DNA of 64,000 bases, from positions 655,073 to 719,072 of the forward strand of contig JAQTTB010000001.1 in NCBI GenBank assembly GCA_028710985.1, read 5' to 3'. Positions 2,205 through 12,128 of this stretch are shown piece after piece. How positions within the stretch are numbered: the stretch's first letter is position 1; each line of letters opens with the position of its first letter. Source of the stretch: Patescibacteria group bacterium. Its GTDB lineage: Bacteria; Patescibacteriota; Patescibacteriia; JAHJFT01. The position numbers and the translations under genes were made by a program. Below the pieces are notes generated by a model. The model saw only the letters and a program-made list of their open reading frames with translations, had not been told where the DNA came from and made no database searches.

Positions 2205-3635
2205 ATGGAGCCCTGCGAGTTAAATATCCAGGAGGCCCACGCGCGCCTCAAATCCAAAGAATTGAGCGCCGCCGAGCTGACTGATTCCTGCCTCAAAGCG
2301 ATCAAGAAAAAAGACGGAAAAATTTCCGCGTTTCTTGAGGTTTATGAAAAAGAGGCAAAAGAGCGCGCCCGTGAAATTGACGAAAAAATTGCGCGGACCG
2401 GAGAAGTCGGGCCGCTCGAGGGCATTCCAATCGCCATCAAGGACAACATGATGTACACCGGCCATGTTTCTTCCGCCGGTTCAAAAATCCTGGAAAAATA
2501 CCAGGCAACTTATACTGCCACCGCGGTGGAGCGTCTCATCGACGCCGGCGCCGTTATCATCGGCCGGACTAATATGGATGAGTTTGCCATGGGTTCGTCA
2601 ACCGAAAATTCGGCCTACGGACCGACCAAAAATCCCCATGATTTAAAACGCGTGCCCGGCGGATCGTCCGGCGGCTCGGCCGCCGCGGTCAGCGCCAACA
2701 TGTGCCTCGCGGCGCTTGGCTCGGATACCGGCGGTTCAATCCGCGAGCCGGCGGCTTTTTGCGGCGTGGTTGGTCTAAAGCCAACCTATGGCCGTGTTTC
2801 GCGCTCCGGCCTGATTGCCATGGCCTCAAGCCTGGATCAGATCGGCCCGCTTGCCAAGACCGCGCAGGACGCGTCCTGGGCGGCGCGCGCCATCGCCGGC
2901 ATTGATGCCAAAGATTCCACGAGTGTGAATGCCGAACCCATACCCGCCGAATTCCCGGACAATATCAAGGGAATAAAAATCGGCGTGCCGGCCGAATTTT
3001 TCGGCAAAGGGCTGGACTCCGGAGTCGAGAAAGCCGTGCGCCAAGCCATTGCGAAGCTCGAGAAACTCGGCGCCAAGATTATTGACATTAAACTGCCGTA
3101 CACTGAATATGGGCTCGCGGTATATTATATAATCATGCCGTGCGAAGTGAGTTCCAATCTCGCGCGCTTTGACGGCATGCGCTACGGCAAAAGAGAGGCT
3201 GGCAAGAATCTTGCCGAAGTTTATAAAATTACCCGCGGAAAAAATCTCGGTCCCGAGGTGCGCCGCCGCGTCATGCTCGGAACGTACGCACTATCGGCCG
3301 GATATTATGACGCTTATTATACCCGCGCCCAGAAAGTCCGCACACTCATCCGCAATGATTTTAAGGAAGCGTTCAAGAAAGTGGACTGCATCGTCGGCCC
3401 GACCGCGCCGACCGCGGCATTCAAGCTCGGTGAAAAATTCAATGATCCGCTCACTATGTATCTTTCCGACATTTACACCGTCACCGCCAATGTCGCCGGC
3501 GTTCCGGCAATTTCTATTCCCTGCGGCCTGGCGGATAAACTGCCGGTTGGCCTGCAAATTATGGGCAATCATTTTGATGAAAAAACAATTCTGCGCGTCG
3601 CGAATGCGTACGAGCTTGTAGGAAGTAGCTTGTAG
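2205..3635 (+). CDS. gatA: Glu-tRNA(Gln) amidotransferase subunit A (amidase signature family)
   Basis: Amidase signature GGSSGGSAAAV with a Ser-cisSer-Lys context. Length is 476 aa and the gene follows gatC. Confidence 0.9.
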   Translation: MEPCELNIQEAHARLKSKELSAAELTDSCLKAIKKKDGKISAFLEVYEKEAKERAREIDEKIARTGEVGPLEGIPIAIKDNMMYTGHVSSAGSKILEKYQATYTATAVERLIDAGAVIIGRTNMDEFAMGSSTENSAYGPTKNPHDLKRVPGGSSGGSAAAVSANMCLAALGSDTGGSIREPAAFCGVVGLKPTYGRVSRSGLIAMASSLDQIGPLAKTAQDASWAARAIAGIDAKDSTSVNAEPIPAEFPDNIKGIKIGVPAEFFGKGLDSGVEKAVRQAIAKLEKLGAKIIDIKLPYTEYGLAVYYIIMPCEVSSNLARFDGMRYGKREAGKNLAEVYKITRGKNLGPEVRRRVMLGTYALSAGYYDAYYTRAQKVRTLIRNDFKEAFKKVDCIVGPTAPTAAFKLGEKFNDPLTMYLSDIYTVTANVAGVPAISIPCGLADKLPVGLQIMGNHFDEKTILRVANAYELVGSSL

Positions 3636-4655: not shown

Positions 4656-5432
4656 ATGATTCCATATCTTCACCTAACAACCTTTAATCTCGGACCGATT
4701 CAATTTCAAGTCTGGGGAACGTTCGTCGCCCTGGGATTTATTGCCGCGATTTTATGCGCCTGGGTTTTTCTCAAACGCCGCGGTCTGAATCACGAAGCCG
4801 TCTGGGATATCAGTTTCGCCGGCCTTGTCGGCGCGGTCATCGGCGCCCGGCTCGGGCACGTGTTTTTTTACGAATGGCATTATTACGCCGCTCACGCGGC
4901 CGAGATATTTTACGTCTGGAAGCCGGGATATTCTTTTTTCGGCGGCTTGTTCGGAGTGATCGCCGGGTATTTGATTGTCGCCCGGATCAAGAAACTGAAT
5001 TATTTTAAATACGCGGACGCGCTGGCTTTCGCCGCGCCTCTCGGCATCGCGGTCGGGCGAATCGGGTGTTTTTTGATAAATGACCATCCGGGCATACGCA
5101 CCGCGTCGTTTCTGGGCGTTCATTATCCGCTCGGCGACCGTTTTGACCTCGGCCTCCTGGAATCCGCGGCCGCCGCGATCCTGTTCATCATTTTTATTAT
5201 GCTCGCGCGCAAAATGCGGACAACCGGTTTTTTCACCGGGCTGTTTCTTATTATGTATGGCGCAGTGCGTTTTGGCCTTGATTTTTTGCGGATCTGGGAC
5301 GGTCCGGGTGCGGAGGCGCGCTACGCGGGCCTCACACCGGCTCAATATTTTTCCATTGCAATTTTTATTATTGGAATCGCGTTGTTATTAAAACTGCGCG
5401 TAAAAAAAATAAATGTCCAAACACAAGCCTAA
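4656..5432 (+). CDS. lgt: Prolipoprotein diacylglyceryl transferase
   Basis: Lgt signature GRIGCF, multi-pass membrane topology, 258 aa. Confidence 0.85.
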   Translation: MIPYLHLTTFNLGPIQFQVWGTFVALGFIAAILCAWVFLKRRGLNHEAVWDISFAGLVGAVIGARLGHVFFYEWHYYAAHAAEIFYVWKPGYSFFGGLFGVIAGYLIVARIKKLNYFKYADALAFAAPLGIAVGRIGCFLINDHPGIRTASFLGVHYPLGDRFDLGLLESAAAAILFIIFIMLARKMRTTGFFTGLFLIMYGAVRFGLDFLRIWDGPGAEARYAGLTPAQYFSIAIFIIGIALLLKLRVKKINVQTQA

Positions 5433-9343: not shown

Positions 9344-9532
9344 ATGATTTATAATTGTCCAATGTGCGGAGAGGTATTGGTCCAGGACATCGACATGAAC
9401 TGCATGAAGTGCGGCAGTGAAGGAGTGGAGGAGCGTGGCAATGAGTTTTATTGTCCGGCCTGCAATGAGCTGAATCCGGACGAAGTCCGCATGGTTTGCC
9501 GGCTCTGCGGCTCGGATGAAGTAAGCGTTTAA
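9344..9532 (+). CDS. Small zinc-ribbon protein with four CxxC motifs
   Basis: CPMCGE, CMKCGS, CPACNE and CRLCGS motifs in 62 aa. Confidence 0.5.
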   Translation: MIYNCPMCGEVLVQDIDMNCMKCGSEGVEERGNEFYCPACNELNPDEVRMVCRLCGSDEVSV

Positions 9533-9533
9533 C

Positions 9534-10208
9534 ATGACTGAATTTTTTGTTGTCGCAACCCCGATCGGCAACCTTGAGGACACGAGCCCGCGGGCCGTGC
9601 GAGTTCTTGCCGAAGCCGATTTGATACTTTGCGAAGATACGCGCGTCACGCGCAATCTTCTTGCGCATTTTAAAATAAAAATCCCTGTTGAAAGTTATCA
9701 CCAGCATTCAAAATTTACCAAAGTAAATCATATTAAAGAGATGGTGCGGCGGGGGAAGCGGATTGCCCTGGTTTCGGACGCCGGTACGCCGGGCGTGAGC
9801 GATCCGGGTGGCAAGCTCGTGGAAGAGCTGGTGCGCGAATTCGGTGCTGAAATCAACATCATTCCGGTTCCCGGACCGTGTGCCGCAGTTACGCTTCTCT
9901 CGGCTTCAGGATTTCCGGCGGACAAATTTTTATTTTTGGGATTTCCGCCGCATAAAAAAGCACGGCAGAAATTTTTCAAAGAAGTTGCCGCCGAAGAGCG
10001 GACGGTCGTGTTTTACGAATCAACTCACCGGATCATTAAAGCGCTCGCCGAACTTGAGGAGACAATTGCCGACCGGCCAATCGTGGTCGGCCGCGAGCTC
10101 ACAAAAAAATTTGAAACAATTTACCGCGGCACGGCTGCGGAAATTAAAAGCAGGCTGCAGGCAGGCGTATCAAAAGGAGAATTTGTAATCGTAATCTCTT
10201 CAAAATAA
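9534..10208 (+). CDS. rsmI: 16S rRNA (cytidine1402-2'-O)-methyltransferase
   Basis: Tetrapyrrole-methylase fold with FVVATPIGNLEDTSPRA ... ILCEDTR, typical of RsmI. 224 aa. Confidence 0.85.
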   Translation: MTEFFVVATPIGNLEDTSPRAVRVLAEADLILCEDTRVTRNLLAHFKIKIPVESYHQHSKFTKVNHIKEMVRRGKRIALVSDAGTPGVSDPGGKLVEELVREFGAEINIIPVPGPCAAVTLLSASGFPADKFLFLGFPPHKKARQKFFKEVAAEERTVVFYESTHRIIKALAELEETIADRPIVVGRELTKKFETIYRGTAAEIKSRLQAGVSKGEFVIVISSK

Positions 10209-10209
10209 A

Positions 10210-10628
10210 AATAATCCCCGTTGCTCAACTAGGGTCAAGCAACGGGGAGAGGAAGGAGGACGTGCTGCAGTCTGTGCATCGGTGATCCAGTCGGACAGAG
10301 ATCGGGGCAGGGGGCCACATCCTTTTCGCTCGTCGGGAACATCCCAACGTCTACTTCGGATTATGGCGAACAGGAGTTCTTGCCAGGATTCTTGGCTCAC
10401 AGACCGAAGTCTGAATCGCGTGCCCATGAGAAGGGAATGGCCCAGTGTCCCCGGACGCGGCCGATCGACAAAGCTGCGACCGAACCGATTTTGCATGATA
10501 CGCGTAATGCCATGCTCAAACTACGAGGTGGTGGGACTCGCGGCTTGAGGAATCCCCTTCGCGTAGCAACACATTCCACAGCACACGCAATTATTACACA
10601 ACGATAATATTTTGTCAATGGCGGACCT
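10210..10628 (+). ncRNA. ORF-free GC-rich structured region (~58% GC); candidate RNA gene or long regulatory leader of metG
   Basis: Only short mutually overlapping ORFs in all frames, none protein-like. Multiple stable hairpins, for example ccccgttgc ... gcaacgggg and cagaccgaagtctg. There is a weak resemblance to the T-box motif (GGUGGUGGGACUCGCGG versus AGGGUGGNACCGCG). The identity is unresolved. Confidence 0.35.
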
Positions 10629-12128
10629 ATGAAAAAATTCTATATTACAACGCCGATTTACTATGTAAACAGCAAGCCGCACATCGGCCACGCTTATACC
10701 AACTTCGCGGCCGATGCGGCCGCGCGCTGGCACCGCATGGCCGGGGCGGATGTTTATTTTTTGACCGGCACGGATGAGAACAGCCAGAAGAATGTTGAAG
10801 CCGCGGCCAAGGAGGGCGAAAAAGATATTCAGAAATTCGTTGACCGCATGAGCGCGGTCTGGCAGGAAACCCTTGATTCACTCGGAATGACTCATGATGA
10901 TTTTATCCGCACCACCGAACCGCGGCACAAAGAAGCCGTGGAAAAATTTGTAAAAACAGTCGTTGACGCCGGCGACATATATCAAGGCACCTACGAGGGC
11001 TGGTATTGCGGCGGCTGTGAAGCATTTGTCACCGATTCGGATCTAATTGACGGCAAATGCCCTATCCACCAAAAACCGGTCCAGAAAATCAAGGAAAAAA
11101 ATTATTTTTTCAAACTCACCAAGTATCGGAAACAGCTGCTTAAGCACATTAAGGATAATCCGGATTTTATCCAACCGGTTTCGCGCCGCAACGAAGTGGT
11201 GAGCTATATCAAAGATTTCATGGAAGATGTCAGCATCACCCGCGAAAGCATGGAATGGGGGATAAAGATGCCCGGCGATTCAAAGAGCGTTATTTATGTC
11301 TGGTTTGACGCGCTGATCAATTACATTTCTGCAATCGGATACTTCAATGACCAGAAAAAGTTTAAAAAATACTGGCCCGCCGATGTGCATATCGTGGGCA
11401 AGGATATCATTAAATTTCATTGCGCGCTTTGGCCGGCCATGCTCATGTCCGCCGGCCTTGAACTGCCGAAGCGGATTTTCGCGCACGGATTTTTTACGGT
11501 TGAAGGCCAAAAAATCAGCAAATCCCTAGGAAACGCCGTTGACCCGGTCGAACTCGCGAACAAATACGGCGTAGAGGCCCTGCGCTACTATCTCTTGCGC
11601 GAGATTACCTTCGGCGAGGACGGAGTTTTCTCAATTTCGCGCCTGGAGGAGCGCTATAATAACGATCTCGCAAACGAATTGGGCAATCTTCTCCAGAGAA
11701 CGCTCGCTATGACGGAAAAATACGTTGATTCCAAAGTGCCGGAGTTAGCGGCCGAAAAAATTGAAAACTGGCCGTTAATCATCCAGGCCATGGAAAAATT
11801 AAATTTTTCCGAAGCACTCGATGAAACATGGGAAGTGGTGCGCGAAGCCAACCGTTTCATTGACAGGGAACAACCCTGGCAGCTCGCAAAGATAAATTCC
11901 GAGCGGCTTGCCGCGGTTCTCTACATCCTGCTTGAAACCCTGCGAAATGTCGGCTGGATGCTTCTTGCCGTCATGCCTCAGACCGCGGAAAAAATCTGGA
12001 CCCAGCTCGGACTTGATCCGGCCAAAGAGAAGTCAAAGAAATTTGAAACTGCAATCAAATGGGGTGGCCTCAAATCGGGTACAGCTATCAAAAAAGCGGA
12101 ATCATTATTCCCGCGCCTAAATTCTTAA
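10629..12128 (+). CDS. metG: Methionyl-tRNA synthetase (class I)
   Basis: HIGH motif (HIGHAY), zinc knuckle CGGC ... C ... H, and KMSKS-type KISKSLGN. Confidence 0.9.
   Translation: MKKFYITTPIYYVNSKPHIGHAYTNFAADAAARWHRMAGADVYFLTGTDENSQKNVEAAAKEGEKDIQKFVDRMSAVWQETLDSLGMTHDDFIRTTEPRHKEAVEKFVKTVVDAGDIYQGTYEGWYCGGCEAFVTDSDLIDGKCPIHQKPVQKIKEKNYFFKLTKYRKQLLKHIKDNPDFIQPVSRRNEVVSYIKDFMEDVSITRESMEWGIKMPGDSKSVIYVWFDALINYISAIGYFNDQKKFKKYWPADVHIVGKDIIKFHCALWPAMLMSAGLELPKRIFAHGFFTVEGQKISKSLGNAVDPVELANKYGVEALRYYLLREITFGEDGVFSISRLEERYNNDLANELGNLLQRTLAMTEKYVDSKVPELAAEKIENWPLIIQAMEKLNFSEALDETWEVVREANRFIDREQPWQLAKINSERLAAVLYILLETLRNVGWMLLAVMPQTAEKIWTQLGLDPAKEKSKKFETAIKWGGLKSGTAIKKAESLFPRLNS

Follow-up and report, generated by a model that had tools for sequence, protein, structure and literature searches.

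A predicted minus-strand structured RNA gene between rsmI and metG of a Patescibacteria genome

Which gene, if any, occupies the 420-nt gap (10210-10628) between an rsmI-like gene and metG? The gap was analysed within a 64-kb window (positions 1-64000) of a 744-kb contig. The genes bounding it were as follows.

9534-10208 (+): rsmI-like gene with a TP_methylase match (tetrapyrrole-methylase fold, consistent with rsmI)
10629-12128 (+): metG

These limits agree with an earlier sequence-only reading, which had described an ORF-free stretch of ~420 nt at this place. The closest MetG among GTDB species representatives was 63% identical to the window protein, placing the window in the Patescibacteria (CPR). 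MetG proteins with 69-75% identity were found in a larger protein database and the corresponding contigs were compared. Our preferred explanation, which we consider likely as a whole, is that the minus strand of the gap holds an independent structured non-coding RNA gene of ~375 nt, antisense to rsmI-metG, whose product would act in trans through its fold.

The gap is overlapped by only four ORFs (98, 88, 75 and 73 aa), which lie on both strands and overlap each other. None of them matched Pfam. The gene caller gave zero calls within the gap in an independent assembly of 100% identical sequence (L001), and likewise zero calls here in eight independent assemblies. Following a six-frame all-against-all peptide comparison of nine homologous units, no conserved frame was found; short similarities were spread over several frames and over the two strands, the pattern expected from nucleotide conservation. 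The 98-aa minus-strand ORF passes straight through the terminator hairpin described below, and substitutions in the helices are compensatory. The four ORFs are what would favour a small protein gene or a decayed remnant of one, an explanation that we find hardly credible, and the earlier description of them as short and overlapping was upheld.

GC content was 54.7% over 10210-10628 versus 48.0% for the whole window, with a peak of 57.5% at 10300-10499. The rise to ~58% given in the sequence-only reading was not confirmed as such; it is modest and unremarkable, as about 11% of equal-sized windows were at least as GC-rich. Folding was compared with that of shuffled sequences on each strand. The minus strand gave z = -2.95 (0/100 shuffles folded as well) and the plus strand z = -1.90 (6/100).

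Transcription signals were located by a promoter scan and by inspection of the hairpins, and bracket a unit on the minus strand.

10613..10618 (-): -35 box TTGACA of the RNA promoter
10590..10598 (-): extended -10 element TGTAATAAT, with hexamer AATAAT at 10595..10590
10205..10248 (-): intrinsic terminator, with UUAUUUUUAU (U-tract) after a 15-bp stem (10248..10215)
10205..10589 (-): whole predicted non-coding RNA gene, bracketed by promoter and terminator

In a consensus scan, the promoter TTGACA-17-AATAAT (10618..10590, minus strand) obtained a sigma-70 score of 11/12 in addition to a TG extension. It adjoins the metG start. The pattern TTGACW-N14-15-TGYRAYAWT occurred once in the window versus 0.01 times expected and, among 147 loci (~1.3 Mb), was confined to the homologous RNA loci; as the pattern was derived from the RNA units themselves, this demonstrates exclusivity and not independent discovery. 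Transcription is predicted to start at ~10582-10586, based on the usual spacing downstream of the -10 hexamer. At the other end, the terminator adjoins the rsmI stop. Read on the plus strand, its hairpin is followed by GAGAGGAAGG and not by a U-tract, and therefore does not resemble a terminator of rsmI. Promoter and terminator together define a minus-strand unit of ~375 nt, the mature RNA being predicted to run from ~10584 to 10207. Both perfect hairpins reported earlier were recovered: ccccgttgc/gcaacgggg is the terminator of the RNA (10215-10248), and cagac-cgaa-gtctg lies at 10400-10413 within the RNA.

Equivalent promoters and terminators were located on the minus strand in all nine units compared. 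At the corresponding position, eight Patescibacteria loci with MetG 71-75% identical to that of the window carried this promoter, a closing stem that covaries, a pyrimidine-rich linker and a terminator. The minus-strand layout was present in L082-L086 and L088-L092 and absent from L087, L108 and relatives with MetG of at most 63% identity. Adjacency of rsmI and metG is widely conserved, with spacers of varying length.

L087: 3-nt spacer (gap 4997-5001), no RNA
L108 (MetG 65%): 4-nt overlap of rsmI with metG (3001-3004), no RNA
L084, L085, L082: spacers of 167-215 nt, with RNA
L090, L088, L092: spacers of 300-374 nt, with RNA
L089: 700-nt spacer, with two complete units in tandem

In every spacer of at least 160 nt the promoter abuts metG and the intrinsic terminator abuts rsmI, on the minus strand. 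Comparison of the gap with 80 GTDB metG loci (MetG at most 63% identical) by nhmmer and blastn gave no homology; spacers in these loci measured 0-145 nt and were unrelated. Many of the GTDB records (L002-L081) with clearly CPR-type rsmI-metG loci were titled 'uncultured Gammaproteobacteria', 'Aenigmatarchaeota', 'Hadesarchaea' or 'Nanoarchaeia', and are probably mislabelled or mis-binned MAGs.

Judged from gene order, the relatives without the RNA imply that rsmI and metG would form one operon there, and that the RNA gene would have been inserted antisense into this operon in the clade of the window. Such an arrangement raises the explanation that the minus-strand RNA is a cis-antisense regulator, pairing or colliding with read-through from rsmI to metG and thereby tuning metG or rsmI. 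One operon is what the 3-nt gap and the 4-nt overlap in the RNA-less relatives suggest. In the window, no promoter-like site was found on the plus strand between rsmI and metG; the hairpin, lacking a plus-strand U-tract, would let transcription through, and the resulting transcript would be complementary to the RNA over its full length. Only 10 nt separate the -35 box of the RNA from the start codon of metG. A pure antisense RNA, however, needs neither a covarying stem nor a four-way-junction core with invariant junction nucleotides, all of which are described below, and the complementary plus-strand sequence exists only owing to the RNA gene itself. Cis-antisense action is in our judgement unlikely as the main explanation; it is compatible with an independent structured RNA gene as an added effect and is no true alternative to it.

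The 5' end of the RNA (first 10-14 nt) pairs just upstream of the linker and terminator in all nine RNAs. The elements involved in the window RNA were the following.

10576..10585 (-): P1 closing stem, 5' strand UGUGCUGUGG, pairing with 10261-10270
10261..10270 (-): P1 closing stem, 3' strand CUGCAGCACG, pairing with 10576-10585
10569-10573 with 10273-10277 (-): P1b, a 5-bp extension of P1
10249..10260 (-): pyrimidine-only single-stranded linker UCCUCCUUCCUC, between P1 and terminator

Across the nine homologous RNAs, compensatory changes were observed in 10/10 pairs of P1 and 93% of the cells were paired, as counted in a 10-bp mini-alignment of which the register was chosen by eye. Observed values were reached by 0/500 shuffles, and slid controls paired in 23-60% of cells. 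Eleven cells were G-U, which the plus strand would read as A-C mismatches. The P1 sequence UGCGGC(G/A)G is common to most units.

A short pyrimidine-rich linker preceded the terminator in all nine homologues; its composition is conserved and its sequence is not. CCUCC or CACCUCC strings were found in several units. Gram-positive sRNAs are well known to target Shine-Dalgarno (SD) regions through C-rich seeds, and the exposed C/U stretches of this RNA (the linker, and a loop UCCCACCAC in its 5' domain) might accordingly be anti-SD seeds of a trans base-pairing sRNA that occludes ribosome-binding sites. The single-stranded linker in nine of nine homologues and the strings just mentioned suit this idea, but SD sequences are scarcely used in the window: an SD-like motif at -20 to -3 was present in 4/59 ORFs of at least 150 aa, with upstream regions being A/T-rich, and translation initiation in the host seems to proceed mostly without SD sequences. 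As only the composition of the linker is kept and the large conserved core is left unexplained, we rate base pairing with SD regions as improbable. The linker, read as its plus-strand complement, contains a perfect SD-like string (AAGGAGG, 10252-10258). Neither a suitably spaced start codon nor a conserved ORF was found after it, and it is probably a by-product of the minus-strand linker.

Inside P1, a conserved core domain of ~130 nt was identified in the independent structured RNA. Its helices meet in a four-way junction, within which a three-way junction is nested, and the junction nucleotides are conserved.

10312..10445 (-): conserved core domain
10437-10440 with 10315-10318 (-): helix Hx, closing the four-way junction (NCAU/GUGN)
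10423-10435 (-): arm Ha
10416-10419 with 10366-10369 (-): arm Hb, enclosing hairpins Hc and Hd
10400-10413 (-): hairpin Hc
10382-10396 (-): hairpin Hd
10358-10361 with 10319-10322 (-): arm He

Covariance models R1 and R2 were trained on the long-form RNAs L088, L089a and L092 only, the window sequence being left out. With filters off, the best match of R1 in the window was 10334-10445 (-), with 21.8 bits and E = 0.0028, the next match having 10.9 bits. When R1 was run on 0.8 Mb of loci, the window RNA was the best match outside the training set (E = 0.034). RNAalifold, applied to the alignment derived from R1, independently recovered Hx, Ha, Hb, Hc and He, of which Hx was newly added. Model R2, which includes Hx, matched the window best at 10312-10445 (-), with 23.7 bits and E = 8e-4; the next best matches of the two models scored 11-13 bits. 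E-values of both models derive from a shortened calibration. The R2 alignment uses a partner for He that carries the family motif GAUGUGG, and the long-form core, to which the window RNA was assigned, is characterised by the motifs CAUUCCC, GUGAGC, AUAAU and GAUGUGG.

In the four-sequence alignment of the core, 97% of cells were paired and 7/26 pairs showed compensatory changes. The observed score was reached by 0/500 shuffles and slid controls paired in 30-44% of cells. All four long forms keep one U-G pair unchanged, and in the R1 (A3) alignment each of two pairs is of a different Watson-Crick type in every one of the four sequences. Hairpin Hd, which was misaligned by the model, paired in 75% of cells in the model alignment; read directly in the window sequence, it pairs as GCCA/UGGC. 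The covariation is drawn from a thin base of four long-form sequences and nine RNAs in total, in alignments that were model-fitted or registered by eye. In nhmmer searches the window RNA had no significant sequence similarity to any relative, and its membership in the family rests on the model E-value of ~1e-3 together with shared position and shared layout. The fold and covariation comparison with orthologous loci that had been proposed earlier revealed a conserved, covarying structure, in P1 and in the core alike.

Because promoter, terminator and G-U pairs (including the invariant U-G pair) fit the minus strand only, the RNA was assigned to that strand. The structured RNA gene proposed in the sequence-only reading is thereby supported by promoter and terminator, homologues and covariation, while the strand is the minus strand, whose specific signals had been missed. 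With the strand settled, the proposal of a long regulatory leader of metG on the plus strand, a T-box or other riboswitch, could be weighed. The region does lie directly upstream of metG, a classic T-box-regulated gene in Firmicutes, and some excess of folding over shuffles was seen on its plus strand (z = -1.9). No T-box or riboswitch model matched on either strand, however. The 'T-box-like' string at 10528-10544, reported as a weak element near metG, had no Rfam support, resembled the T-box consensus no more closely than shuffles did, and is the complement of the minus-strand loop UCCCACCAC. Promoter and terminator face away from metG in nine of nine units, and the hairpin, being at the rsmI end and without a U-tract, is unsuited to attenuating metG from the plus strand. 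The eleven G-U cells of P1 and the invariant U-G pair of the core would become A-C mismatches if the plus strand were transcribed. Moreover, close relatives lack the spacer; as metG directly abuts rsmI in them, the gene needs no such leader. A metG leader is largely refuted and retains a very small probability. Had only the strand of the flanking genes been read, a T-box or leader would wrongly have been called.

Outside the core, the four long forms of the minus-strand RNA share an arrangement and not a sequence. A long helix that encloses an inner hairpin comes first, followed by one more hairpin and the core; a C-rich segment or hairpin on the 3' side then leads to P1. Two segments of the window RNA correspond to these outer parts.

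10446..10568 (-): variable 5' domain, with long helix P2 containing an inner hairpin (loop UCCCACCAC), then hairpin P3
10278..10311 (-): C-rich 3' segment between core and P1, weakly structured in the window and a hairpin in relatives

The 5' domains of the window RNA, L088, L089a and L092 were folded separately and gave the same arrangement, with sequences that could not be aligned. Constraining the window RNA to the homology-derived helices gave -145.3 kcal/mol versus -150.4 kcal/mol for the unconstrained minimum free energy fold, a cost of ~5 kcal/mol.

Known RNA families were searched next to the promoter and covariance evidence. The whole window contained no match to Rfam 15 at gathering thresholds, and ARAGORN found no tmRNA in it. 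At E of at most 10, in a scan showing only scores above about 11 bits, neither strand of the gap matched RNase P RNA (RF00010/RF00011), tmRNA, SRP RNA, 6S RNA, T-box (RF00230) or a riboswitch, and the same scan of seven to eight related loci gave only tRNAs elsewhere and terminator-like noise. The families suggested for a check on both strands in the sequence-only reading (RNase P, tmRNA, T-box, SRP and 6S) were thus negative throughout. The 64-kb window had zero tRNA or tmRNA genes and zero gathering-level Rfam matches, which is unusual for a genome of ~1 Mb. One or two tRNA genes lie a few kb upstream of rsmI in relatives (L084:3452-3523, L087:3615-3686, L085:1717-1863); the corresponding part of the window is without them.

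In RNase P RNA, a P4 pseudoknot is formed by CR-I (GAGGAAAGUCC) and CR-V (ACAGAANNCGGCUUA; ACAGAA..CGGCUUA-like) near the 3' strand of P1. Signature motifs of this kind (RNase P, T-loop, SRP domain IV, T-box) were searched as consensus strings, and their matches were compared with those in shuffled sequence. Best matches to CR-I and CR-V in the RNA had 3-6 mismatches, equalled those in shuffles and were not at the expected positions. For the tRNA-like T-loop the best match was equalled in shuffles, and the SRP domain IV motif (GGAA tetraloop flanked by AGCA loops) was matched at chance level only. The stretch before the 3' strand of P1 pairs locally as P1b. No candidate for a long-range pseudoknot of the P4 type was found, the order of helices being a chain of local domains inside P1. 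Signatures of RNase P RNA were tested separately because CPR forms can fall below Rfam thresholds: Lui et al. (2021) reported RNase P RNAs below these thresholds, with helices missing or extended, in ~10/35 complete CPR genomes (PMC8172020).

A highly diverged housekeeping RNA missed by Rfam must therefore be weighed, RNase P RNA being the best candidate by size besides tmRNA, SRP RNA and 6S RNA; RNase P RNA and tmRNA had also been named, by size, in the sequence-only reading. A length of ~375 nt, an end-to-end closing stem, a strong stand-alone promoter of consensus type and a multi-helix fold with conserved junction nucleotides suit RNase P RNA, which has ~330-400 nt, paired ends and many helices. 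In diverged CPR forms it is known to be missed at Rfam thresholds (PMC8172020). None of the four housekeeping RNAs was found elsewhere in the 64 kb of the window, which is part of a 744-kb contig. Against this stand the Rfam and ARAGORN results for the gap and the related loci, the chance-level signature motifs, a helix order unlike that of RNase P RNA and the missing P4. With ~95-130 nt without terminator, homologues at this locus that have the same promoter and P1 fall short of the size of an RNase P RNA or a tmRNA, and one genome (L089) carries two different units in tandem. RNase P RNA is expected to be a single essential gene with homologues that all have ~270 nt or more, which these units do not fit; its identity with the gap RNA is unlikely. 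6S RNA is highly expressed, stand-alone and poorly conserved in sequence, has a closing stem and sometimes paralogues, and in this respect resembles the gap RNA. It is, however, a rod of ~150-200 nt with a large central bubble, whereas the gap RNA is branched and ~375 nt long; 6S RNA was rejected, as both the minimum free energy and the homology-constrained folds were multi-branched and no Rfam model matched. In sum, we give a housekeeping RNA only a slim chance.

Three further candidates were tried and rejected. A T-box leader shares with the gap RNA that it adjoins an aminoacyl-tRNA synthetase gene, here metG, but RF00230 did not match, the motif was at chance level and the structure is specific to the opposite strand. 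A tRNA with a group I intron, as occurs in Patescibacteria (PMC13011429), was not compatible with the RNA, which has no T-loop, no tRNA-like ends and no intron model match. The third was a riboswitch with an anti-terminator. Multi-way-junction aptamers such as SAM-I resemble the gap RNA in having a covarying junction core of ~130 nt with invariant nucleotides, followed by an intrinsic terminator. The gap RNA differs from them in that no gene lies downstream on its strand, no aptamer model matched, and no anti-terminator pairing is evident: by inspection, the 5' half of the terminator stem has no possible pairing partner other than the 3' half of that stem.

The gap RNA is probably a genuine, novel and lineage-restricted structured non-coding RNA gene. 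In the narrow searches made, its family was found only in the clade with MetG of at least 71% identity. A metagenome scan with a core-motif pattern gave 15 matches, all of them chance or coding, and did not return the JGI contig with L089 itself; two pattern scans of viral contigs, evaluated by model, gave only chance matches. Phage and plasmid collections contained no blastn match to the RNA. No description of such an RNA was found in the literature on CPR.

Within the family, nhmmer distinguished three groups of RNAs, with interiors of ~95-350 nt.

L088, L089a, L092: long forms
L089b, L090: medium forms
L082, L085, with L084 alongside: short forms, these units having ~95-130 nt without terminator
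L089 (2396-3062, -): tandem of a long unit (2709-3062) and a medium unit (2396-2668), each with its own promoter and terminator

As a modular family, these RNAs all keep promoter, P1, linker and terminator whether they are long, medium or short, and none matches Rfam. Long and medium forms have in common the motif AAUCA[stem]...GGCCCGAGC[stem]GAUG(U/C)GG at the same relative position. Since this motif and the P1 sequence are shared, the three forms were read as a single gene lineage in which internal domains have been exchanged. The tandem pair of L089 points to duplication with exchange of domains among family members and, as the forms are interspersed among relatives, may reflect an ancestral duplication followed by differential loss. 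One syntenic site with long, medium, short, tandem and absent forms could show how modular RNA domains are gained and lost.

These RNAs probably constitute a new orphan family of structured bacterial non-coding RNAs. Like raiA motif RNA, OLE, ROOL, GOLLD and HEARO, the family is stand-alone, lineage-restricted and multi-helix, and is defined by covariation and conserved junctions. It differs from them in size and helix layout, matches none of their Rfam models and, unlike those orphan large RNAs, has modular long, medium and short forms. HEARO, furthermore, has an associated IscB protein gene and the gap RNA has no such gene. A bolder proposal is that this is an undescribed class of large structured RNA specific to a Patescibacteria lineage, with a four-way-junction core of riboswitch or ribozyme grade, diversified by domain swapping between tandem paralogues while promoter, closing stem and terminator are kept; we put it forward tentatively, at somewhat below an even chance.

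Because its promoter is near consensus (sigma-70, extended -10), which would provide high and constitutive expression, and because its 5' and 3' ends are both sequestered in P1, which would stabilize it, the RNA is expected to be abundant and stable. It would act in trans via its folded core, with a protein or small molecule as partner, and not as a simple antisense seed, since covarying helices and invariant junction nucleotides typify RNAs that work by their three-dimensional fold. Under the bolder proposal above, a strongly promoted RNA of 375 nt in so reduced a genome would probably either be part of an undescribed ribonucleoprotein or sense a metabolite in trans. Patescibacteria have genomes of ~1 Mb and almost no characterised regulatory or structural RNAs besides the universal ones. 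A constrained, strongly promoted 375-nt RNA is costly in such a genome, and the RNA is probably important for that reason. As a gene it has remained unannotated, missed by protein-centred and Rfam-based pipelines alike.

On the other side of rsmI, a small ORF of 56-63 aa with a faint Zn-ribbon match was observed in the 9360-9530 region, directly upstream of the gene. This ORF was called in all relatives (e.g., L083:3928-4116, L085:3940-4131, L088:1787-1978 and L090:1924-2115) and stops 1-2 nt short of rsmI.
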